DNA of 64,000 nucleotides, taken from IMG/VR virus record IMGVR_UViG_3300037583_000003, positions 29,183-93,182 of that record, one strand, 5' to 3'. Position 1 is the first letter of the stretch. The number at the start of each line of letters is the position of its first letter. The notes beneath the pieces were generated by a model, which worked only from the letters and a program-made list of their open reading frames with translations, ran no database searches and had not been told where the DNA came from. Below, in pieces: positions 14,248 through 28,444 of this stretch. The position numbers were made by a program, and so were the translations under genes. This DNA comes from a virus.

Positions 14248-14457
14248 TTCACAAATAACCATCTACACTGGAAACAACCCTACTTTCAGGTTCACTGTCT
14301 TTCCTCTGACCCTAGTAACGTATTCACCATTAGTGATACAGGTGATTTTATCTCACAAGATCCATCACAAGACCTAGAACTACTAAACTCTGGTTTTAGT
14401 GAAGTAGTAGACAGAACTATAGCTCTAGGTTTAGGCACATATAAAGGAAAACAATGA
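14237..14457 (+). pseudogene. frameshifted small gene (pseudogene, recoding or sequence error)
   Basis: ATG 14237 has an AGGAGA RBS but its frame stops early; the -1 frame is open 14248-14457 and ends in an ATGA overlap with the next gene. Confidence 0.45.
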
Positions 14458-15281
14458 AAGAACATGACTATTTTGGCTACAACAGCGGCAAGGGTATTAT
14501 CCCTGAAGAAGACTTCCGAATCTCACCATCACAGGTATCTAGGTACTTCAGCGAAACAACTAACTGGTTTCGTGAATTCCTACTAGGTGAGGAGGGTTTC
14601 GTAGGTAACACAGCAAGCAACCTAGGTAACTGTGTACATGCAGGAGCAGAGATGTACGTTAGAGAAGGTGTTGTCCACCACAACCTAATTACAGACTTCA
14701 TCACTAACCTACCAGAGGACATAGACAAGCAACGTATCTTGACTAACTACCCTATCATGTTAGATACGCTGATCTCAGAATACCTACGTTACAACGTACC
14801 ATCACAAACTGAGTTATTCCTAACCCACAAGCTAGTTGAAGGTGTATGGGTTGCTGGATCTGTAGATGCTATCAGAGGGTCTAGAATCGTAGACTACAAG
14901 ACTACATCAGCACTAACAGCACCAACTAAGATCTCCAGACCCTACTGGTTTCAACAGTGTCTATACGTATGGCTAGCAAGGAAGAATGGTTATTCAATCG
15001 ACTCCTTTAGTCTAGTCTTCATAACAGCACCACAAGTGGGTAGGATATCAGAGAAAACTGGTAAGCCACTAAAGGACTACCCTTCTAAGGTAACAGTGTT
15101 AACTCACCTAGTTACAGACCTAGACATGGAGATCATAGATAACACAGTAAAACTCATAGCTGGATCTGTCAATGTATGGAAATCTAACCCTGAGCTACAC
15201 TACATTTTAGCTCAAGACTACCGTCTAAAACTTCCAGACAAACCAGTAAAATTCATAAGGAGAGCTAAATGCAAGGACTAA
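14454..15281 (+). CDS. PD-(D/E)XK exonuclease (Cas4/RecB-like)
   Basis: ISPSQ, GNCVH, GSVD...IVDYKT, QQCLY. Confidence 0.85.
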   Translation: MKEHDYFGYNSGKGIIPEEDFRISPSQVSRYFSETTNWFREFLLGEEGFVGNTASNLGNCVHAGAEMYVREGVVHHNLITDFITNLPEDIDKQRILTNYPIMLDTLISEYLRYNVPSQTELFLTHKLVEGVWVAGSVDAIRGSRIVDYKTTSALTAPTKISRPYWFQQCLYVWLARKNGYSIDSFSLVFITAPQVGRISEKTGKPLKDYPSKVTVLTHLVTDLDMEIIDNTVKLIAGSVNVWKSNPELHYILAQDYRLKLPDKPVKFIRRAKCKD

Positions 15282-15439
15282 CACACCACCCTAAAGGTTC
15301 AATGTGTATGGTTTGCTCAAACAACAAACTTGATGATTGTAAGCACCTAGATTTCCATAAGATGCCAGTCATAGAAAAGTATGACGACATAAAGGTAGTT
15401 AGGTGTACTAACTTCAAACAAGAAAAACCACACAGGTAA
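15269..15439 (+). CDS. small cysteine-rich phage protein (56 aa)
   Basis: AGGAG RBS; MQGLTHHPKGSMCMVC...C...VVRCTNF; below the ORF-track cut-off. Confidence 0.65.
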   Translation: MQGLTHHPKGSMCMVCSNNKLDDCKHLDFHKMPVIEKYDDIKVVRCTNFKQEKPHR

Positions 15440-15469
15440 ATTAACACAACCAACCAAAAGGAGTACTAT

Positions 15470-16135
15470 ATGGCAGTAAAACTGTTAATCTCAGGATTAT
15501 CCAATACTGGTAAAACAACCCTAACTAAGGACTTACAGAATGCCCTAGTTATTAACCACGATGGTAAGGACTACAGCCTTCCTATCCCACACGCTACTAT
15601 CAAGGAATTCTCACTAGCATCTGATATGGTTACATTCATTACAGACAAGATAGAAGCTTACAACAACAAGTTCGGGGATTACCCTGAAACAATTGTAATT
15701 GACTCAGCTAGTAGGGTCTTCAACAGCCTCTATGATGCATGTATTGGAAAATACTCAGGTTTTGACGTCTACACTACCCTAGACAAAGAAATAAAGGAGT
15801 TTATTAACTTCCTTGAGTTGTCTTTATTAGAATCAGACATCAACCTAGTTATCATTAGTCACGCAATATTTGACGATAAAACCAACAGGTTCATCCAAGT
15901 AGGTAAAGGTAACTTCAGTAAGACAGGTGGATTCACATCTATTGTAGACGAAGCTATATTCATTGATGTAAATGGTACTAAACGTACAATCTACTATCGT
16001 GAACCTAAGTACTCAGCTAGAACATTCATTGACGAATTACCTGATAAATGCAAGGCATCAGAATTCAACTTACAAAACCATTTAGACTTATTAACCAAAA
16101 GTAGCAATTCAGCTGCGGAATACGAACTTCAATAA
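15470..16135 (+). CDS. Sak4-like AAA ATPase / ssDNA annealing protein
   Basis: Walker A GLSNTGKTT, Walker B IVIDS, IISH; lies between exonuclease and SSB. Confidence 0.8.
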   Translation: MAVKLLISGLSNTGKTTLTKDLQNALVINHDGKDYSLPIPHATIKEFSLASDMVTFITDKIEAYNNKFGDYPETIVIDSASRVFNSLYDACIGKYSGFDVYTTLDKEIKEFINFLELSLLESDINLVIISHAIFDDKTNRFIQVGKGNFSKTGGFTSIVDEAIFIDVNGTKRTIYYREPKYSARTFIDELPDKCKASEFNLQNHLDLLTKSSNSAAEYELQ

Positions 16136-16906: not shown

Positions 16907-18340
16907 ATGAGCACAACTTCAGAACAACAAGCACCAATAGATTATCTACTAAAGCATGAAGGTCTAGTAATGGTTAACGCTATAGCTGGATCAGGAAAAA
17001 CCCACCTACTAGTAGAAGCATCTAAGCAACTCCCTGTACAGAAAGCGTTATACCTAGCATACACCAAGTCAATAGCTACGGAGGCATCACGAAAGTTCCC
17101 CTCAGCTACAGTAGAGTGTAGAACTACACACTCTCTAGCTTACCAAAGAACTGTGAACCTACTAGGCTTAAAGCTAGGCTACTTCAACTACAAGGCTATC
17201 AAAGACCGTATCACATACGAAGACAAACTTACAGTGATAAGCCACGTTGAGAAGTTTTGTCTATCAAAACACCTAGACTTCGACAGCTACACAGAAGAGT
17301 ACCAAATAGACCCAGGGTTAGCAGACATAGCAGTCAAACACCTTGACTACATGTACTCTGCTAAAATAGATTGTACTCACTACTTCTACCTGAAGGTATT
17401 CCACCAACTACTAGCATCTGGTCACATTGTATACGATGAACTAGACCTATTAATGTTAGACGAAGCTGGTGACCTAAACGAGGTAACTCTAGAGATCTTC
17501 CTACTACTACCCGCTAAACGTAAGATAGCTGTAGGTGACAAACATCAAAACATCTTTAGCTTCAACCACACAGTTAACGCTTTCAAACTACTAGAAGGTC
17601 AAGGAAAGGAGTTTAGCTTAACCAAATCTTGGAGAGTATCTTCACACATAGCTAACGACATCCAACGATTCTGTAGTACCTACATGGATTCCAACATGGA
17701 GTTCTCTGGTATCACCTATAGCAACCTTAATTTAATAGAGTCTAAAGGTTACATAACCAGAACTAACTCTGCCCTCATTGGTAAGATGATCGAGCTAAAC
17801 GCTAGCAACACACCTTATGCCCTAGTAAGACCAGCCTCAGCTATATTCAAAACAGCACTAATGGTTTGCTACTTCAAGAAAGGTGGCGAGATCAAGGACA
17901 AGGAATACAGTCACCTACAAGAAGAACTAAACGATTGGTACAAAACCAACCCAACAGGTTCTTATGGTAAGCTACTGACCTACTTAAAGATACAACACTC
18001 CGACGACATAGGGTTAACTACTGCATTATCCGTGGTACTAACCCATACCTCCAGTGCTGTAATCGAAGCACACAAAATAGCTAAGTCCCATGAGAAGTCT
18101 CACTGCAACTACATCCTAGCTACCGCTCACTCTGTCAAAGGACTAGAAATGGATGAAGTTTACATAGCAGATGACCTAAACAGCTCAGTAGAAGACCTTC
18201 TACCAGAACTCATTGGTAACCCAAACTACGTTAAGGATCAAGAGGAGATTGACTCACTTAATCTATACTACGTAGCTTGCTCAAGAGCACGTAAGAACCT
18301 AGTTAATGCAATCCACCTAACAAACTTAAAGGAACTCTAA
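16907..18340 (+). CDS. superfamily 1 (UvrD/Rep-like) DNA helicase
   Basis: AGSGKT, LDEAGD, VGDKHQNI, LTKSWR, TAHSVKGLE, YVACSRAR. Confidence 0.92.
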   Translation: MSTTSEQQAPIDYLLKHEGLVMVNAIAGSGKTHLLVEASKQLPVQKALYLAYTKSIATEASRKFPSATVECRTTHSLAYQRTVNLLGLKLGYFNYKAIKDRITYEDKLTVISHVEKFCLSKHLDFDSYTEEYQIDPGLADIAVKHLDYMYSAKIDCTHYFYLKVFHQLLASGHIVYDELDLLMLDEAGDLNEVTLEIFLLLPAKRKIAVGDKHQNIFSFNHTVNAFKLLEGQGKEFSLTKSWRVSSHIANDIQRFCSTYMDSNMEFSGITYSNLNLIESKGYITRTNSALIGKMIELNASNTPYALVRPASAIFKTALMVCYFKKGGEIKDKEYSHLQEELNDWYKTNPTGSYGKLLTYLKIQHSDDIGLTTALSVVLTHTSSAVIEAHKIAKSHEKSHCNYILATAHSVKGLEMDEVYIADDLNSSVEDLLPELIGNPNYVKDQEEIDSLNLYYVACSRARKNLVNAIHLTNLKEL

Positions 18341-18567
18341 TGAAAACTTGCAAACGTAAGTACCTAAAACATGAAAAGAGATGGGAGTACAAAGCCACCG
18401 ACAAGAATGGTTATACTTTCTACTACACAGAAAAACCAATTACTGTGTATTACAACCTAGGTGTATGGCACTGTGAAAATGGTATCTATTCCCCTATAGG
18501 TATTTCTAATAAAGTAGCTTCAGGTAAAAAAGATTGGGAAAAATCACTCAGAAAAATTAAGGACTAA
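18340..18567 (+). CDS. MKTCKRKY-family small protein, copy 1
   Basis: 75 aa; near-identical termini to copies 2 and 3. Confidence 0.85.
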   Translation: MKTCKRKYLKHEKRWEYKATDKNGYTFYYTEKPITVYYNLGVWHCENGIYSPIGISNKVASGKKDWEKSLRKIKD

Positions 18568-18569
18568 CT

Positions 18570-19232
18570 ATGGATCAACTAGTCAAAGTCAGCTACGAGA
18601 GTACTTCAGACCTAACTGTAGCTCGTAGGTGGTTAAAGGAACTAAACTCCTTCTCTACCATAGCTTGTGACTTAGAAACCTCTACAAGGTACTCAGACGA
18701 GGACAGAGTTGAGCTACTAGCTACATCGCTAGACGAGTCCCTACCCAAGCAAGTTAGACGTGCAGCTAAAGCTAAACTGCACTCTTCAGCACTAAGCCAT
18801 CCAATGCACACAGTACTAACTCACTTCCAAGTAGCATGGAACGAAGAAGAAGCAAAAGTATTCATACTCGACAGTGTAGAAATCACAGAACTAATCCTAA
18901 ACTTCATAGTCACAACTAAAGTAAAACAGATATGGCATAACTACTCTTTTGATGGTAAGCATATCTATTTCTATACACTAAGACACCCTATAGACTTCGA
19001 GGATAGCCAGATACTAGCTAAAACACTAGCTAACCACGTAGACATACAACATGCTACAACAGGGCTAAAGGAACTAGCTGGTTGTGCTTATGGAGCTTGG
19101 AGTGTGTCTGATGAGTTATTCCACTTCGATAACCTAAATGACCCTAAGCTACTACTCTACGCTGCAACAGACCCATGTGCAACTATGTGGATATGGAATG
19201 TAATGCAACACAACTTAAAGGAATCACAATGA
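18570..19232 (+). CDS. 3'-5' exonuclease domain of family A DNA polymerase, as a separate ORF
   Basis: Exo I CDLET, Exo II WHNYSFD, Exo III YAATD. Confidence 0.85.
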   Translation: MDQLVKVSYESTSDLTVARRWLKELNSFSTIACDLETSTRYSDEDRVELLATSLDESLPKQVRRAAKAKLHSSALSHPMHTVLTHFQVAWNEEEAKVFILDSVEITELILNFIVTTKVKQIWHNYSFDGKHIYFYTLRHPIDFEDSQILAKTLANHVDIQHATTGLKELAGCAYGAWSVSDELFHFDNLNDPKLLLYAATDPCATMWIWNVMQHNLKESQ

Positions 19233-19480
19233 AAACTTGCAAACGTAAATACCACAAACATGAGTTAGTGTGGAATTACAAGTCTACTGATAAGGATGGT
19301 AGCGTTTTCTACTTTAAAGAAAAACCACATATAGCCACTTGCGCTTCAAGATTTTGGAGTAGTGAGTTTTCTTCCCACTTTCCTTCAGGTTTCATTGACT
19401 CCATCCGTGTAGGTTTATCCTACAAGGTAGTGTCAGGTAAGAAAGATTGGAAGAAATCATTAAGAAAAATTAAGGACTAG
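19229..19480 (+). CDS. MKTCKRKY-family small protein, copy 2
   Basis: True start is ATG 19229 (AAGGA RBS, ATGA overlap with exonuclease stop); 83 aa. Confidence 0.85.
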   Translation: MKTCKRKYHKHELVWNYKSTDKDGSVFYFKEKPHIATCASRFWSSEFSSHFPSGFIDSIRVGLSYKVVSGKKDWKKSLRKIKD

Positions 19481-19482
19481 TT

Positions 19483-19710
19483 ATGAAAACTTGCAAACGC
19501 AAATATTTAAAACAAGAGACTATCTGGAACTACAAAGCTACTGATCCCAACGGTTACATTTTCTACTACGTGAGAGAACCAGTCATTACTGATTACGATC
19601 CGGATATATGGGATTGTGGGTTTGGTAGCTATTCCTCTGCAGGCTTGTCCAAGAAAGTAGCTTCAGGTAAGAAAGACTGGACTGAATCACTCAGGAGAAT
19701 TGTAGACTAA
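19483..19710 (+). CDS. MKTCKRKY-family small protein, copy 3
   Basis: 75 aa; same conserved termini. Confidence 0.85.
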   Translation: MKTCKRKYLKQETIWNYKATDPNGYIFYYVREPVITDYDPDIWDCGFGSYSSAGLSKKVASGKKDWTESLRRIVD

Positions 19711-19712
19711 CT

Positions 19713-22700
19713 ATGAAACCTAAATACCTTAACCCTACAACATCAGACCCTCATTCACCTTGGGACTTACTACCTGCTCCTAACCCAAAGGACTCAACCT
19801 ATCCAGATGACTTCTTCTACAAACAAGTAGCTAAGCACCTACTTAAGGACACTGTACGTATGATGGACAATGGTCTACATATAGACATGGACAAGGTTGA
19901 GGCACTAGAGGAAACCTTAATCGAGGTACTAGCTTCAGTATCTACTAGATTAGAAGATAACAAGACCATTCGTAATTTCCTTGTACTTCGTCATGCAGAT
20001 CTAAAACTAGACTACGTAGCTGACAGAAAAACTAAACTAAGAGAACCTAGCTACTACACTAAAGAGTTTAAACACAAGGATATGGTACACCGTAGCTACT
20101 TTATGAGAGAGTTCCTATTAAGAACTAGTATAGACCCTCCAGAAGAACTACTACCTACTGGTATACCTAAGTGGTCAGCTAACGAGGTAAAGAAACTCCA
20201 AGGAAAATACCCAATACTACAGAAGCTACTACTTGGAACATTACCCCTAACAAACGTTGACGTTATAACAGCTATGTCCAGGTTAGACAAAGATAAGTCT
20301 GACATGTACAACGTAAAGTACCTAGAGCAGATCAAACAGTTACCTGTAGAATTCCCTAAGTTCAATCCAGGTAGCACACTTCAACTACAAAAACTATTTA
20401 ACTACCTAGGCATTGAGTCAGAGTCATTCTCCAAGAAGACTGGTTTAGCTAGTTGGGACAGAAAGCAAGTTGAGCGAGTTAACAAACTAACCAACAAACC
20501 AGATGTAACTAACTTCACTCAAGCCTTCATAGATCACTCATATGCAGCCATAGTTAAGAATAACTTCATAGAGGGATTCTACAACTACAGCATAGACGGT
20601 AGATTGTACGGGACTGTAAAACTCCTAGGAGCTAAGTCAGGTAGACCTACATCAGCTAACCCTAACATGTTGAATTTCCCTTCATCAGGATCTATATTCT
20701 CCAAACCTATAAAGGAGTGTTTCACAGCACCACATGGTTTTGTTATAGGAGCTATAGATTACGCCGCCCTTAATATATCGGGGGTCTTACCTAGTAACAG
20801 GTGAGTAATAATGGAATTTAATTGCTGGAACGCTAAGGGGAAACCTAAGCCAATCAGCAGCGAAAGATAGTTAATTTAATAGTCCCGTAATCGTACTTAG
20901 ACTATACTTTAATCAATAAAGGAGACTGTATGAAAATGTACAATTACGCTTACATAGAATGTAAGGATTACATGAAAATAGTTATCACAAAGTTAGACGA
21001 CGACTCTTTCTACAAAGAGGGTTACTGTGATAACGACGTAAAACCACAAGTAAAAGCTACTGGTGTAAGATACGCAAATACTGGGTACTTATACCTGGCA
21101 CGAAAAATTAACTGGACGCGTTCAGAGACTATCTACGCACGTAGAGTAGGCTTCAAGTGAAGTCGAAACAGTTCCTACCCTATCCTACACGGAGGGTAAA
21201 GATATAGTCCGATACCACAATAAATTGTGGAGTAGTCTAACGAACTACATAACATATAAGCGAAGATCGTGTAATAGCTAACCTATCTGGTGACAAAAAC
21301 AAACTTGGTATATTCACTCAAGGGCTAGATGGTCATTCACTAGCTGCCTGTTACTATGTACCAGACAGAGTAGCCGTTATTCTAGGTATTACAACCAAAG
21401 AACTACTAGATGACATAACTAAGGCATCTAGATTACTAAAGAAGCTTGTAGACGACAAAGTACCTGCTGCTGTAAAAATCAGAGGGTTCTTTAAAGCAAC
21501 AAGCTTCGCATTAGCGTAGACGTACATGCGCCTTTATGGAGTAATCCATATCGAACAACTATATAAATGCTGGGACTTCCAGTTAAACTAACCTATAACC
21601 TATTACAGGCCATGAACAAGCGGTTAGTTATGGAAAATCAGCAGGTTAAACTTTTATATTTATCTAAGTAAGCAACCTGGTACACTATAACAAACAAAGG
21701 AATCTTATATGATAAAGGTAATAGAAAATTTCCCGAACTACACAATAAGCACAGAGGGTAGTGTAACAATGACAGTATCAAACGTAACTAAGAAGCTCTG
21801 GGTTGGTGCTAATGGCTACTTGCACGTAGACCTAAGTTCTAATGGTTTTACTAAGAAAGTTTCACTCCATAGACTACTAGCAAAACACTTCTTACCAAAT
21901 TCTGGTAACAAACGTACTGTAAACCACATAGATGGTAATAAGTTAAATAACAGCTTGTGTAACTTAGAGTGGTCTACTGACTCAGAAAACCTAAAGCACG
22001 CTTACGACACAGGTTTAAGATCTTGTCAGGCTACTTACACGAATTGCCAACTAGAGGACATACTCACTAACATGTACCTTAAAGGTATAACCTTAGTAGA
22101 CATTTCTTTCTACGTTGGTCTAAAGTGTTCAGCACTTAGTGTGTCACTTCGTAAAGCAGCTGCAAGACTTGGTCTAACAGAGGAATACAAAAGTTCCTCT
22201 GCCGACAATATAAAGGCTAGGCATAAACTTGTAGGCGTACTCAACACCAAAACCATCAGGTTACAGATGATAAATGAGCCTACTGGTGACGTGGTAAGAA
22301 CGTTTAGATCTCTTAAAGAGGCTAAAGATTTTCTTGGTGTTAGCTCATCAGGTCCTATAAGTAATGTACTTTCAGGTAGGCAGAAAAGAGCTTACAAGTA
22401 TTTGTGGAAAAAGGTTTAACCCCAACGACTATCCCGTAAGGGAGTACACTCAAGTGAGTGGAAACGTATAGTACCCTGAAAAGGGTAATGATATAGTCTA
22501 CTCTGTTTAGAGATAAGCAGAAGTTCATAAGCGAACTGGTACTACTTAACGACTAGTATTGAATACAACGATGGCTCATTCCCACCAAACATAGCAGCTA
22601 CAGCAGGTATACCACTTGCGGATGCAGAGAGAATTTTCAATGCTTACCACAACGACATGTATCCTGGCATTACTCGCTACAGGGAAGAGTATGTGCTACC

Positions 22701-23118
22701 AACTGCCATAGAACACGGCAAACTTCATCTAGCACTAGGATTCTCTATATGGACTGACAACCCCTCTAAAGACATCCGAACACTAGCTAACGCAACCTGT
22801 CAGGTATGGTCAATACTTACACAGATTGCAATCAACAAAATACACCAACTAATCGACCAAGCTGGTTACCAAGATGACATCAAAGTAACCTCTACCATCT
22901 ACGACTCTATCTACTTTGAGATAAGAGATGACCCTAAGATCATACAATGGCTTAACAACCGTATAGTACCAATCTTAGAGAAAGACTTTATGGAAGACCA
23001 GGTAGTACCTAACAGTGCTGACCTAGAGCTAGGTTCTGATTGGGCTACTCTCCACACGTTAACGCACAACGCTAGCATTAGAGAGATTACAGGTGTACTT
23101 AATAAACTAGAAAGGTAA
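19713..23118 (+). CDS. family A DNA polymerase, polymerase domain; exons 19713-20770, 21261-21517, 22571-23118 (620 aa spliced)
   Basis: Joined exons give 1863 nt in frame and restore motif A (IDYAAL/EDR) and motif B (RGFFKATSFALAY/G); also SGRPTSANPNMLNFP and motif C IYDSIYFE. Confidence 0.93.
20771..21260 (+). mobile_element. group I intron 1 in DNA polymerase motif A (490 nt)
   Basis: Exon ends in T, intron ends in G; P1 GCCCT/GGGGT; core AATTGCTGGAA, AATCAGCAG, GTTCAGAGACTA, AAGATATAGTCC; removal restores the frame. Confidence 0.93.
20930..21160 (+). pseudogene. probable remnant of an intron-encoded homing endonuclease
   Basis: 76-aa ORF with AAGGAG RBS in the same intron loop that holds the HNH gene in intron 2; no nuclease motif; runs into the ribozyme core. 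Confidence 0.5.
21518..22570 (+). mobile_element. group I intron 2 in DNA polymerase motif B (1053 nt)
   Basis: Splits the Tyr codon T/AT; P1 GCGT/GCGC, P10 CAT/ATG; core AAATGCTGGGA, AATCAGCAG, CAACGACTA, ATGATATAGTCTA; terminal G. Confidence 0.93.
21709..22419 (+). CDS. intron-encoded HNH homing endonuclease (NUMOD4-HNH-NUMOD1, I-HmuI-like architecture)
   Basis: YTISTEG; HRLLAKHF...VNHIDGNKLNNSLCNLEW...EN; C-terminal FRSLKEAKDFL...ISNVL...YKYLWK. Confidence 0.92.
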   Translation: MIKVIENFPNYTISTEGSVTMTVSNVTKKLWVGANGYLHVDLSSNGFTKKVSLHRLLAKHFLPNSGNKRTVNHIDGNKLNNSLCNLEWSTDSENLKHAYDTGLRSCQATYTNCQLEDILTNMYLKGITLVDISFYVGLKCSALSVSLRKAAARLGLTEEYKSSSADNIKARHKLVGVLNTKTIRLQMINEPTGDVVRTFRSLKEAKDFLGVSSSGPISNVLSGRQKRAYKYLWKKV

Positions 23119-23122
23119 AACT

Positions 23123-23362
23123 ATGGCAAGACTTACAACTAAGCAACTAGCAGATGCACTAGTAAACAATGGCTCATTTCCAACCAGAGCAGCAGCTCGT
23201 TACGCATTAGACGAAGTAAATCAAGCAATCATCGAAACTTTAGAGAATGGCTCTGCTGTATCTATTGTAGGCTTCGGTAGATTTGAACCATTCACTCTAC
23301 ACAGTGGAAAAATCAAAGCTAAGTTTACTGCTTTTAAAGCATTCAAAGACGCTATCAACTAA
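23123..23362 (+). CDS. HU/IHF-like DNA-binding protein
   Basis: LTTKQLADAL...VSIVGFGRF...KFTAFKAFKDAIN with a shortened arm. Confidence 0.85.
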   Translation: MARLTTKQLADALVNNGSFPTRAAARYALDEVNQAIIETLENGSAVSIVGFGRFEPFTLHSGKIKAKFTAFKAFKDAIN

Positions 23363-23371
23363 GGGTTACCT

Positions 23372-23743
23372 ATGGAAGAACCACAACCACTCCCACAAGA
23401 TTCAGTAAAAGAAACTCTAGATCAACGTGGGAAAAGGTATGGGTCATTCGAGAAGCAAGCTGAGTTATCTCAAGCACTATCTCAGACAATGATCCGTCAC
23501 TATTTCAATAACCACCAACAACCAACTACGCCCTTACCACCCTTCATAGTCGAAGCAATCAACAACATCTGCCACAAGCTAGCTCGTATAGCTAATGGTG
23601 ACCCACTCTACGTAGATTCATGGAGAGATATTGCAGGTTACTCATCGTTAGTAGCTGAGATCTTAAAGACTACAGAGGGTGCTACAGACGCTAAGGTTAC
23701 CAACACTAAGTTCACAGACGGTAAGTGGACTGATACTACCTAA
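23372..23743 (+). CDS. DUF6378-like all-alpha protein (nucleotide-metabolism associated)
   Basis: TLDQRGKRYG...KLARIANGDP...DSWRDIAGY. Confidence 0.7.
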   Translation: MEEPQPLPQDSVKETLDQRGKRYGSFEKQAELSQALSQTMIRHYFNNHQQPTTPLPPFIVEAINNICHKLARIANGDPLYVDSWRDIAGYSSLVAEILKTTEGATDAKVTNTKFTDGKWTDTT

Positions 23744-25759: not shown

Positions 25760-28444
25760 ATGACTAAACACATCCAAGTAACCAAACGAGATGGTAATAC
25801 AGAACCACTAGACCTAGACAAAATCCACAGAGTTATATCTTGGGCTGTAAAAGGACTAGAGGGAGTATCTGTATCAACAATAGAGCTACAGTCACGTATC
25901 CAGTTCTACGATGGCATAACGACTTCAGATATCCACGAAACAATCATAAAGTCTGCTGCTGATCTCATATCTACGGAATCACCAGATTACCAGTACGTAG
26001 CTGCTAGGTTAGCTATGTACCACTTACGTAAACGAGCATTTGGCAGTTTTACTCCTCCATCATTAGAATTACACATAAACACCTTAGTAAAGTCTAACCA
26101 CTACGACAAGCACATACTTGAGGACTACTCTAGTGCAGAGCTATCAGAGTTAGAGGACTCTATTAACCATGCACGTGACTTCACCTTCAGTTACGCTGGA
26201 GTTAAACAACTTGAGGGCAAGTACCTCCTACAGAACAGGGTAACAGGTCAAATATATGAGTCTCCACAGTTCATCTACATGCTAGTTTCCCTGTGCTTAT
26301 TCGCTAGCTACCCTAGAGAAACTAGACTACAGTATGTAAAGGATTTCTATGAAGCAACATCTACATTCAAACTATCTTTACCTACACCAATACTAGGTGG
26401 AGTCAGAACACCATCTAGGCAGTTCAGCTCTTGTGTACTCTTAGACACTGATGACTCACTTGACTCTATCAACTCGGTATCATCAGCCATAGTTAACTAT
26501 ATCTCCCAACGTGCAGGTATAGGCGTAAACGTAGGACGTATTCGTGCTTTAGGTAGTGAGATACGTGGAGGTGAAGCTAAACATACAGGATTAATTCCCT
26601 TCATCAAACTATTTCAAGCCTCAGTAAAATCTTGCTCTCAAGGTGCTATTAGAGGTGGAGCTGCTACCTTATTCTATCCGCTATGGCACTTAGAGGTTGA
26701 GTCACTTCTAGTACTTAAGAACAACCGTGGTGTAGAAGAGAACCGAGTTAGACACCTAGACTACGGTGTACAAATCAACAAGCTTATGTACCAACGTATG
26801 ATTGAGGGTGGGACTATTACCCTATTTAGTCCATCTGATGTACCTAACCTATATGACTCCTTCTTCTCAGACCAAGACGAGTTCGAGAGACTATACAAGA
26901 TCTACGAATCTGATCCTAGTATCCGTAAAAAGTCTATACCAGCAATTGATCTATTTGTGCAACTAGCACAGGAACGAGCACAGACTGGACGTATCTACAT
27001 ACAGAACGTAGACCATTGCAACACCCATAGCCCATTTGACCCAAATGTAGCACCTATCAGACAATCAAATTTATGTGTTGCTCCAGAAACCCAAGTACTA
27101 ACTACTAACGGTTACATACCTATAGCTGAGTTAGATGGTACAAAAGTACAAGTATGGAATGGTATAGAATGGTCTAGTGTACACGTACATAAGACAGGAA
27201 CTAACCAAAAGTTACTTAAAGTTACTACCTCTAGTGGGCAGACTTTAGAGTGTACTGAGTACCATAAGTGGTACATATATGACGAGTACTCTGGCTTACT
27301 GAAAGTTAAGCGAACGGTTAACCTAGAAGCTGGTGATAAACTAATCAAGGCTAGTCTACCATCAGGGGAGCTAGTACCTGAAGAGTTCAATAAAGTCATC
27401 AGTGTCACAGACGAAGGTAGAACAGATGACACCTATTGTTTTACTGAGCCTAAACGAGGTATGGGTATGTTTAACGGCATACTAACTGGTAACTGTTTAG
27501 AAATAGCTTTACCAACTACTCCACTGGGTCGAACTGAATACGAAGGTGAGATTGCTTTATGTACACTATCTGCTTTCAACCTAGGAGCTATAGATTCTCT
27601 AGATGAACTAGAACACCTATCTAACCTAATCGTTAGAGCTTTAGATAACCTATTAGACTACCAGAACTACCCTGTATCAGCTGCTGTAAAGTCTGGACAA
27701 GGACGTAGACCTCTTGGTGTTGGTGTAACTAACCTAGCCTATTACCTAGCTAAGAACGGTGTTTACTACTCTAACGGTTCAGCTAACAACCTAGTCCATA
27801 GAACCTTTGAGGCAGTACAGTTCTACCTTTTAAGGGCATCTAACAAACTAGCTCGTGAAACAGAACCTTGTGAGTACTTTCATGAGACTACTTATGCTAC
27901 TGGTGTGCTACCTATCGACACTTACAAGTCTGATGTAGACACCGTATGTAATCAACCACTTCTACTAGACTGGGAGAGTTTACGCTCTGACATAACGGAG
28001 CATGGTTTACGTAACAGTACACTAAGTTCACTAATGCCCTGTGAAAGTAGTTCGATCTTGTCTAACTCCACTAACGGTATAGAACCTCCTAGAGGCTACG
28101 TATCTGTGAAGTCTAGTAAGGATGGTGTCCTAAAACAAGTAGTCCCAGAATACCTCAAACTAAAGCAAAACTATGAGCTTCTATGGGACATACCAAACAA
28201 CACTGGATACCTAGAGTTAGTAGCTATTATGCAAAAGTTTGTAGATCAAGCTATCTCAGCTAACACTAACTATGACCCTACTAAGTTTATAGACTCTAAA
28301 GTACCAATTAAGCAAGTACTTCAAGACATCCTATACAGCTACAAGCTAGGTCTTAAGACACTCTACTACCACAATACTAGAGATGGTGCTTCAGACCAAG
28401 CAGAAGTAGATGACGGATGTGCTAGTGGTGCATGTAAACTTTAA
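25760..28444 (+). CDS. nrdA: class Ia ribonucleotide reductase alpha subunit, intein-containing
   Basis: ATP cone VTKRDG, QFSSC, CSQGAIRGG, SNL-[intein]-CLEI, KTLYY, C-terminal CASGAC. Confidence 0.97.
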   Translation: MTKHIQVTKRDGNTEPLDLDKIHRVISWAVKGLEGVSVSTIELQSRIQFYDGITTSDIHETIIKSAADLISTESPDYQYVAARLAMYHLRKRAFGSFTPPSLELHINTLVKSNHYDKHILEDYSSAELSELEDSINHARDFTFSYAGVKQLEGKYLLQNRVTGQIYESPQFIYMLVSLCLFASYPRETRLQYVKDFYEATSTFKLSLPTPILGGVRTPSRQFSSCVLLDTDDSLDSINSVSSAIVNYISQRAGIGVNVGRIRALGSEIRGGEAKHTGLIPFIKLFQASVKSCSQGAIRGGAATLFYPLWHLEVESLLVLKNNRGVEENRVRHLDYGVQINKLMYQRMIEGGTITLFSPSDVPNLYDSFFSDQDEFERLYKIYESDPSIRKKSIPAIDLFVQLAQERAQTGRIYIQNVDHCNTHSPFDPNVAPIRQSNLCVAPETQVLTTNGYIPIAELDGTKVQVWNGIEWSSVHVHKTGTNQKLLKVTTSSGQTLECTEYHKWYIYDEYSGLLKVKRTVNLEAGDKLIKASLPSGELVPEEFNKVISVTDEGRTDDTYCFTEPKRGMGMFNGILTGNCLEIALPTTPLGRTEYEGEIALCTLSAFNLGAIDSLDELEHLSNLIVRALDNLLDYQNYPVSAAVKSGQGRRPLGVGVTNLAYYLAKNGVYYSNGSANNLVHRTFEAVQFYLLRASNKLARETEPCEYFHETTYATGVLPIDTYKSDVDTVCNQPLLLDWESLRSDITEHGLRNSTLSSLMPCESSSILSNSTNGIEPPRGYVSVKSSKDGVLKQVVPEYLKLKQNYELLWDIPNNTGYLELVAIMQKFVDQAISANTNYDPTKFIDSKVPIKQVLQDILYSYKLGLKTLYYHNTRDGASDQAEVDDGCASGACKL
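27074..27493 (+). mobile_element. mini-intein in NrdA (140 aa)
   Basis: CVAPETQVLT...LECTEYHKW...TYCF...FNGILTGN followed by +1 Cys; no endonuclease domain. Confidence 0.93.

Follow-up and report, generated by a model that had tools for sequence, protein, structure and literature searches.

A family A DNA polymerase divided between two genes in an uncultured marine podophage: a probably inherited split and a probable later arrival of MKT mini-genes

Introduction

How does a phage come to encode the proofreading exonuclease and the polymerase of what appears to be one family A DNA polymerase in two separate genes, and would the two products still act as a single enzyme? The exonuclease domain is reportedly required for the stability of family A polymerases (PMC10201439). 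The question is raised by a replication locus in a 64,000-nucleotide stretch of virus record IMGVR_UViG_3300037583_000003 (hereafter the window), whose coordinates are used throughout and on whose + strand all the genes described below are encoded. The original prediction attributed the division to insertion of repeated small genes, the MKTCKRKY (MKT) cassettes, into a formerly continuous polymerase gene.

The locus is best explained as the replication module of a marine podophage, uncultured, whose kin are the Alteromonas AD45 phages and, at a greater distance, the N4-like phages. Its nearest polymerases are those of AD45-type and N4-like phages (VEc25, JWAlpha, Pokken, and phiCB2047-B), not those of T7-like phages. 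A UvrD-like SF1 helicase (16907..18340; Pfam UvrD-helicase, AAA_19, and UvrD_C) opens the locus, its TAA stop sharing 1 nt with the start of the first MKT gene, and the order helicase, exonuclease, polymerase is kept in the relatives.

The polymerase gene and its introns

The polymerase is encoded in three exons, as had been predicted. Exon 1 (19713..20770) carries the N-terminal region, the thumb, and the palm as far as motif A (DYAAL), and was assigned by Pfam (DNA_pol_A, 41.5 bits, exceeding the cut-off of 34.3), PHROG (phrog_23226 ‘DNA polymerase’, E=1e-109), and comparison with the intron-less AD45 polymerase, by which its splice point was also placed. Exon 2 (21261..21517) runs from the motif A glutamate to the FALAY of motif B, with the frame restored in alignment to the same AD45 protein, and exon 3 (22571..23118; phrog_23226, E=9e-69), aligned with the polymerases of AD45, R22Y, and PT11-V19, supplies the rest of motif B, the YDS of motif C, and the C-terminus. 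Joined together, the exons give 1863 nt and an unbroken protein of 620 aa, in which DYAALEDRV and FALAYGSF are restored. By the family A patterns for motifs A (DYxxLE), B (RxxxKxxxFxxxYG), and C (xxDS/HDE), the spliced product contains DYAALEDRV, RGFFKATSFALAYG, and STIYDSIYFE in one palm/fingers domain.

Both interruptions have the character of group I introns and are separated by 257 nt. The first, of 490 nt within motif A (20771..21260), scored 61.1 bits against Rfam RF00028, above the gathering score of 50; its splice sites, CT/T...AAG/C (slashes marking the splice points), leave a 5′ exon ending in U and an intron ending in G, with the frame restored, and its 76-aa ORF (20930-21160) had no match in Pfam or PHROG. 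The second, of 1053 nt within motif B (21518..22570), scored 34.9 bits (E=2.8e-6), below that gathering score, and its splice sites, GCGT/...AACG/AT, fit the same U/G rule, excision again restoring the frame. It contains an HNH/NUMOD homing endonuclease ORF (21709-22419; Pfam HNH_3 32.7 bits, I-HmuI_NUMOD-like, and the HNH endonuclease family phrog_59). Relatives carry introns at the same site and at a third site, the latter in L027 and at the point where the ORFs of P0007, P0009, and P0010 end.

Group I introns bearing HNH endonucleases are familiar in phage DNA polymerase genes, be it the I-HmuI type of SPO1 and SP82 or the introns of T7-like phages. The introns of the window resemble these as self-splicing introns within the most conserved polymerase motifs, and the ORF of the second matches both HNH_3 and the I-HmuI NUMOD-like domain; the window differs from the SPO1/SP82 and T7-like types in having two introns in one gene.

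The stand-alone exonuclease

Upstream of the polymerase lies a 220-aa DEDDy 3′-5′ proofreading exonuclease (18570..19232), identified by its motifs, PHROG, an AlphaFold (AF2) model, Foldseek, and its fused orthologues. It displays the DxE of Exo I (D34, E36), the NxxxD of Exo II (N124, D128), and the YxxxD of Exo III (Y197, D201) on an RNase H-like fold, and D34, E36, D128, Y197, and D201 do not vary in 34 stand-alone homologues. The model (pLDDT 95.9) retrieved the exonucleases of Klenow, apPOL, RNase D, WRN, and NrnC in Foldseek at E about 1e-6 to 1e-7. The protein scored 21 bits against Pfam PF01612, under the cut-off of 23.6, and matched phrog_25155 (E=5e-54) and phrog_17 ‘DNA polymerase’ (E=1.8e-8), the phrog_17 columns aligned to it lying immediately ahead of those aligned to the polymerase.

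A search for fused orthologues, suggested with the original prediction, found polymerases of about 830 aa in P0008, P0017, and P0124, of whose N-terminal domain the exonuclease is an orthologue. The model of P0008 (pLDDT 90.8) matches the Klenow fragment across both domains, with a TM score of 0.78-0.84 normalised to the target, and has a single low-confidence internal block at residues 221-230 (pLDDT 60). It is at these residues that the split forms end and begin, and the cut falls in the linker between exonuclease and polymerase. The exonuclease ends in NLKESQ before its stop codon and the polymerase begins with MKPKYLN, both of them ordinary tails and neither showing the intein blocks expected of halves joined by trans-splicing.

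The interval between the two genes was also as first described, in that neither an intron core nor an intein occupies it: Rfam returned no intron at E<=1, and a Pfam search of the exonuclease, each MKT gene, and exon 1 of the polymerase yielded no intein family. No sigma-70-type promoter and no intrinsic terminator were matched on its + strand. An assembly artefact as the source of the gap was ruled out because the gap contains two intact conserved genes.

The MKT mini-genes

Those two genes are MKT2 (19229..19480, 83 aa), whose start overlaps the exonuclease stop as ATGA, and MKT3 (19483..19710, 75 aa), 2 nt past the stop of which the polymerase ATG is found. They are paralogues of MKT1 (18340..18567), which encodes a small basic protein of 75 aa between helicase and exonuclease and shares 53-61% amino acid identity with them. 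The pair following the exonuclease had been noted in the original prediction, as had the exonuclease motifs. No MKT copies beyond these three were found in the window; outside it, the same genome has a fourth, divergent version of the domain as part of a larger ORF. With dS about 1 and dN/dS of 0.25-0.37, the copies are, on sequence grounds, old paralogues and real genes under purifying selection.

For the MKT proteins, Pfam gave no family at E<=0.01, the E<=10 search adding a sub-threshold match of MKT1 to DUF5026 (E=0.037); PHROG gave weak matches only, to families of unknown function (phrog_1972 for MKT1); and the protein atlas returned unnamed phage clusters alone, with every score below 0.9. 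Across IMG/VR, the JGI metagenomes, GenBank phages, and an index of 5.8 billion proteins, the only relatives besides the window's own copies reduce to P0004, the sole outside homologue, on a JGI contig of 1638 bp. None of 59 related loci contains an MKT homologue.

The MKT proteins might be functional accessory parts of a split replicase, serving as adaptors or regulators of exonuclease–polymerase assembly or stoichiometry, and not passengers or selfish elements. The presence of three copies, the purifying selection upon them, their translationally coupled position right where the exonuclease and polymerase genes start, and the distant fused copy all speak in favour of such a role. Against it, split polymerases in the 59 loci evidently function without MKT, neither family nor function could be assigned from Pfam, PHROG, or the protein atlas, and the same junction in relatives hosts either small ORFs unrelated to MKT or endonuclease-like genes with an AP2 domain, which suggests no more than a permissive place for genes to land. 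On balance the accessory role is considered unlikely.

The original prediction also envisaged that recombination between MKT copies flanking the exonuclease could delete or amplify it. This proposal is weakened: the longest identical stretch is 21 bases between MKT1 and MKT2 and 17 bases between MKT1 and MKT3, which makes the copies, at a dS of about 1, poor recombination substrates, and the exonuclease is the very domain reportedly needed for stability.

Split and fused forms among relatives

Separate exonuclease and polymerase ORFs, cut in the same linker, were found in all 52 related loci with both halves (49 of them IMG/VR contigs, the other 3 Alteromonas phages in GenBank), and not one of these carries an MKT gene. 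The exonuclease loci were found with an alignment as the query, a single-protein query having matched none. By a simple ORF rule, 19 of the pairs overlap by 4-38 nt and five are spaced by 14-21 nt, the remainder being up to about 1.4 kb apart with 0-5 unrelated small ORFs between the halves. Split forms make up 41 of the 49 ingroup rows in the tree of exonuclease plus polymerase; in the exonuclease set they account for 78 of the 105 classified rows, with fused and split forms interleaved in the window's polymerase lineage.

These observations bear directly on the claim that a fused polymerase was cut in this very lineage by MKT insertion, the cassette furnishing the stop at which the exonuclease ends and the start from which the polymerase is read, independently of the splits in relatives. 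That cassette-free relatives are split as well (52/52) had been set in advance as the result that would speak against it. In the exonuclease plus polymerase tree, moreover, the window is sister to the split, cassette-free L027, with SH-aLRT values from quick IQ-TREE searches of 96 (LG+G4) and 88 (C20). The outgroup-rooted C20 tree places the window in a split-dominated clade of 17 rows (SH-aLRT 95) whose earliest branches are all split. The junction DNA of L027 (...ATAAAGGAGAACACTAATGACTAA) and that of the window (...CTTAAAGGAATCACAATGA) are of the same design, both having a Shine-Dalgarno sequence within the exonuclease tail and a stop/start overlap, and the polymerase starts of the two agree to within one residue when counted from the conserved SPWD motif. 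In-silico removal of 19229-19712 joins exonuclease to polymerase through ATGA as a normal coupled gene pair.

There is nevertheless some evidence on the side of cassette fission. The exonuclease tree puts fused orthologues near the window, among them P0005 (52% identity), and the window's small clade there consists mainly of fused forms; pairing of the window with the fused P0008 was not rejected by the AU test (p=0.25); the family has undergone at least five changes between split and fused states; and the stop of the exonuclease shares bases with the ATG of MKT2, the polymerase ATG in turn following the MKT3 stop. Taken with the tree and the junction of L027, fission by the cassette is judged improbable. 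A shared 12-mer, AACTTAAAGGAA, ahead of MKT1 and MKT2 was tried and rejected as a mark of the cassette flank, since the similar TAAAGGA of L027 at both junctions indicates that it is at least partly an ancestral ribosome-binding site.

We consider it probable that the split was inherited from an ancestor common to many relatives and not made in this genome, that the MKT genes came later, and that the polymerase works as two subunits. The MKT genes are best read as later arrivals, peculiar to this phage, at an already split locus; the timing of their insertion is a coarse estimate because the closest relative at the locus is just 59% identical. The hypothesis that every split form goes back to one origin was rejected (p about 1e-4), and a topology with the split forms in one clade and the fused ones outside it was not (AU test, p=0.13). 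Re-fusion in P0008 and the P0005 group, which the maximum-likelihood trees suggest, is not claimed because the AU test retains the latter topology. It is conceivable, as a tentative wider scheme that we hold to be somewhat doubtful, that the AD45/N4-related clade has had its polymerase cut at the linker, and possibly re-fused, several times, with the junction as a landing pad for small genes and homing-endonuclease-like genes, and MKT as an undescribed mini-gene that lands precisely at the start codons of genes for replication.

Proposed enzyme and its history

The proofreading domain is most likely made as a protein in its own right and the enzyme assembled from two subunits, an association that we infer; this part of the original prediction stands, and cassette insertion as its cause does not. 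The 220-aa exonuclease and the 620-aa polymerase would together constitute one family A DNA polymerase, most probably reassembled non-covalently into a Klenow-like enzyme once the polymerase mRNA had lost the two self-splicing introns in motifs A and B. A free nuclease decoupled from the polymerase, for instance of the NrnC/RNase D type for nucleotide recycling, is highly improbable: stand-alone NrnC, RNase D, and WRN exonucleases are among the best Foldseek matches, and a PDB profile search gave diDNase and RNase D alone, as weak matches, but the protein has its orthologue in the N-terminal part of the fused polymerases, precedes the polymerase gene in 52/52 loci with both halves, and is placed by phrog_17 directly before the polymerase-matched columns.

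Historically, fission would have taken place in the flexible linker in an ancestor of many relatives. The MKT genes would then have arrived exactly where the start codons of exonuclease and polymerase lie, taking over the old ribosome-binding sites and keeping translational coupling from helicase to polymerase. The split in this genome would be inherited and ordinary for its clade, the MKT genes alone being peculiar to the phage.

Comparison with known systems and significance

A polymerase and its proofreader on separate polypeptides within one complex are well known from the E. coli Pol III core, in which alpha is the polymerase and epsilon (DnaQ) the proofreader. In the window, likewise, polymerase and DEDD-type proofreader are encoded as two chains; Pol III, however, belongs to the unrelated family C, whereas the proofreader here is a former domain of the same chain.

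A closely similar arrangement is that of the Alteromonas phages vB_AmaP_AD45-P1..P4, in which the helicase is followed by a 223-aa homologue of the exonuclease and then by a 611-aa polymerase, with identities to the window of 42% for the exonuclease and about 50% for the polymerase. AD45 differs in being devoid of MKT genes and introns, and its two ORFs overlap by 20 nt as annotated or 35 nt by the longest-ORF rule. The table of Garcia-Heredia et al. 2013 places a 672-nt ‘exonuclease’ beside a 1851-nt ‘DNA polymerase’ (PMC3821669), and the available parts of that description contain no discussion of the pair as a polymerase fission.

Fission of exonuclease and polymerase was reported by Czernecki et al. 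2023 (NAR) in S-SBP1-like, T7-like cyanophages as the first for family A polymerases (PMC10201439). There too the two are encoded by neighbouring genes, the break falling in the interdomain linker, neither intein nor intron connects the halves, and a non-covalent complex is predicted that superimposes on fused relatives (PMC10201439); the window correspondingly has separate adjacent genes, a linker cut, and fused close homologues. The S-SBP1 fission, however, arose by frameshift in T7-like PolA cluster #5, whereas the window's polymerase is of the AD45/N4-like lineage; because its nearest polymerases are AD45-type and N4-like, its fission is taken to be independent of that one. The window further differs in the two extra genes between the halves, and its lineage in a far more widespread split with fused forms interleaved.

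Family A exonuclease–polymerase gene fission is thus already known, having been published in 2023, and a separate AD45 ‘exonuclease’ has been annotated since 2013. What the present locus contributes is that such fission is not confined to a few cyanophages and is the majority state in a second, large marine phage lineage, where fused and split forms side by side provide natural matched pairs for relating separation of the proofreader to fidelity and regulation.

Organisation of the replication module

The plus strand from 16907 to 23362 carries a single tightly packed run of genes on a virus contig of 93,182 bp, the window being its 3' 64 kb. A UvrD-like helicase (16907-18340) is followed by MKT1 (18340-18567), the exonuclease (18570-19232), MKT2 (19229-19480), MKT3 (19483-19710), and the polymerase, which starts at 19713, the MKT genes being three small "MKTCKRKY" paralogues. 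Each junction in the run leading from the helicase up to the start of the polymerase is an overlap (TAATG, ATGA) or a 2-nt gap, and a search for sigma-70-type promoters and intrinsic terminators on the plus strand of 18340-19713 returned zero matches. An HU-like DNA-binding protein gene (23123-23362) lies directly 3' of the polymerase gene, and a PD-(D/E)XK nuclease and an AAA_24 (Sak4-like) ATPase (14454-16135) also belong to the module, the gene order of which is the same as in Alteromonas phage AD45-P1. The large subunit of a class I ribonucleotide reductase is encoded at 25760-28444, with ATP-cone, all-alpha, and barrel domains. Its barrel appears to hold a mini-intein of ~130-175 aa, beginning at about NLC/VAPETQVL and finishing at about GILTGN/C; the Pfam Intein_splicing match is weak and under the cut-off (E=9.5e-4).

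The exonuclease and the interrupted polymerase

The 220-aa exonuclease bears Exo I (D34/E36), Exo II (N124/D128), and Exo III (Y197/D201) motifs, its five catalytic residues being invariant among the 34 stand-alone homologues compared. Pfam DNA_pol_A_exo1 scores 21 bits, slightly below its 23.6 cut-off, and the AlphaFold model (pLDDT 95.9) matches the exonucleases of Klenow, apPOL, RNase D, WRN, RRP6, and NrnC. In the phrog_17 'DNA polymerase' profile, the exonuclease occupies columns 652-828 and polymerase exon 1 columns 843-1015; since these ranges adjoin, the two genes cover successive stretches of a single polymerase profile.

Comparison with the polymerase of AD45-P1, which lacks introns, placed the exons at 19713-20770, 21261-21517, and 22571-23118 on the plus strand. 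The originally noted layout of exonuclease, two MKT genes, and three-exon polymerase was confirmed. U terminates both 5' exons and G both introns, and the joined message of 1863 nt encodes 620 aa with motifs A (DYAAL/EDRV) and B (FALAY/GSF) restored. Rfam detected a group I intron at 20761-21231 (61.1 bits) and a candidate second one at 22253-22520 (34.9 bits, under the gathering score of 50). At E<=1 it gave nothing else across 18000-23500, so that the noted lack of an intron between exonuclease and polymerase also held. Intron 2 harbours an HNH/NUMOD (I-HmuI-like) endonuclease ORF (21709-22419); the 76-aa ORF of intron 1 matched no Pfam or PHROG family.

The polymerase gene of the nearest relative, locus L027 (7600-9550), likewise holds two HNH-bearing intervening sequences. 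The first shares the window's motif-A site, and the second occupies a third position, past GAKSGRxTS at about query residue 317. Three fused relatives (P0007, P0009, and P0010) have ORFs that stop at this third position, which suggests that they too contain introns there. In locus L035 (4639-6279), ~1 kb interrupts the exonuclease gene itself, between query residues 139 and 126, while the exonuclease match of L034 (6001-6631) comprises two segments separated by 4 nt, possibly reflecting a frameshift or sequencing error.

Split and fused relatives

AD45-P1 encodes, in order, a helicase, a 223-aa product annotated as 'hypothetical protein' that shares 42% identity with the exonuclease of the window, and a 611-aa DNA polymerase, the latter two ORFs overlapping with nothing between them. 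Small unrelated ORFs separate the halves in PT11-V19 (five) and R22Y (three). A profile scan of IMG/VR added 56 loci. Exonuclease and polymerase were separate ORFs in all 52 related loci with both halves, made up of the 3 GenBank Alteromonas phages and 49 IMG/VR contigs; applying a simple ORF rule gives overlaps of 4-38 nt in 19 pairs, spacings of 14-21 nt in 5, and spacings of up to ~1.4 kb in the others. Both halves are present in every related locus whose contig spans both regions. AP2-domain ORFs (233-246 aa) lie between the two genes at L025:6656-7396 and L038:6678-7379; this domain is typical of free-standing homing endonucleases, which these ORFs probably are.

An exhaustive HMMER search also recovered full-length fused orthologues of ~830 aa (P0008, P0017, P0073, P0090, P0091, and the P0005/P0124 cluster), as sought by the original prediction, together with a group of longer forms (870-930 aa) that are more distantly related. 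A different form is seen in P0006 (307 aa) and its cluster, where an exonuclease orthologue with 50% identity runs on into ~90 aa of unrelated sequence instead of meeting a stop or a polymerase domain.

Age of the split

The exonuclease-polymerase tree (63 rows, 829 columns) was rooted on the distant 870-930-aa rows, all of which are fused; its 49-row ingroup comprises 41 split and 8 fused forms. The window is sister to L027, which is split and cassette-free (SH-aLRT 96; 88 under the C20 mixture model), and falls in the outgroup-rooted C20 tree within a split-dominated clade of 17 rows (SH-aLRT 95), whose earliest branches are split rows only. At least five changes of state are required. A single clade of all split forms was rejected (p about 1e-4), whereas neither a single split clade on the side of the tree that includes the window, with fused forms excluded from it (p=0.13), nor a pairing of the window with the fused P0008 (p=0.25) was. 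The number of changes and the topology tests thus show that the state changed repeatedly, but do not show re-fusion.

The window and L027 have the same junction design: the tail of the exonuclease gene contains a Shine-Dalgarno sequence (AAAGGA), and the stop codon overlaps the ATG that follows. The polymerase begins 13 (L027) or 14 (window) residues ahead of the conserved SPWD motif. Removal in silico of 19229-19712 yields exo-ATGA-pol, and that of 18340-18569 yields helicase-TAATG-exo. Taken together, the cassette-free split relatives, the fused orthologues, the phylogeny, and the junction design indicate that the split predates the cassettes. The proposal that cassette insertion caused the fission is accordingly unsupported: cassette-free relatives are split, and none of the 52 loci with both halves contains an MKT homologue.

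The MKT genes and recombination

MKT1, MKT2, and MKT3 share 48-61% protein identity, and no further copy was found in the window. Values of dN/dS of 0.25-0.37 at dS of about 1 mark the three as old paralogues subject to purifying selection, their conserved ends being kept at the protein level and not through recent gene conversion. Recombination between copies, by which the exonuclease had been envisaged to be lost or amplified, would have poor substrates, the longest identical DNA stretches being 21 nt (MKT1/MKT2) and 17 nt (MKT1/MKT3).

Searches of Pfam, PHROGs, and a protein atlas yielded no functional assignment. The 80-aa protein P0004 was the sole MKT homologue found beyond this genome, scans of IMG/VR, JGI metagenomes, and GenBank phages being negative outside it. 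Beyond the window, 28 kb upstream, a 259-aa ORF (G000:C1:19530-20309; L063:913-1692) carries at its C-terminus a fourth and distant version of the MKT domain (~65 aa, E=1.7e-6 against the MKT profile, with a weak phrog_1972 match), and the N-terminal 190 aa of this ORF matched no family.

A probable two-subunit enzyme and known systems

The model of the fused P0008 (pLDDT 90.8) shows an enzyme of two domains that resembles Klenow (TM 0.78-0.84 normalised to target), its only weak internal block being a coil at residues 221-230 (pLDDT 60), past the last exonuclease helix, at the point where all split forms end and restart. Given this fold and a breakpoint in the weak coil, the separate exonuclease and polymerase would be expected to form a non-covalent complex, and the predicted two-subunit polymerase is plausible, although the causal story attached to it found no support. 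Such a complex has likewise been proposed for S-SBP1-like cyanophages, and the exonuclease domain is said to be needed for the stability of family A polymerases (PMC10201439).

Fission of the exonuclease and polymerase genes in T7-like cyanophages was reported by Czernecki et al. (2023, PMC10201439) as the first case among family A polymerases. In the portion consulted, the 2013 paper on the AD45 phages (PMC3821669) lists an 'exonuclease' of 672 nt adjoining a polymerase of 1851 nt, and the adjacency carries no comment there. The window's polymerase is nearest to those of AD45 and N4-like phages, unlike the T7-like enzymes of the cyanophage case, and the split family A polymerase described here is therefore a second, independent, and much larger example of an already described arrangement.
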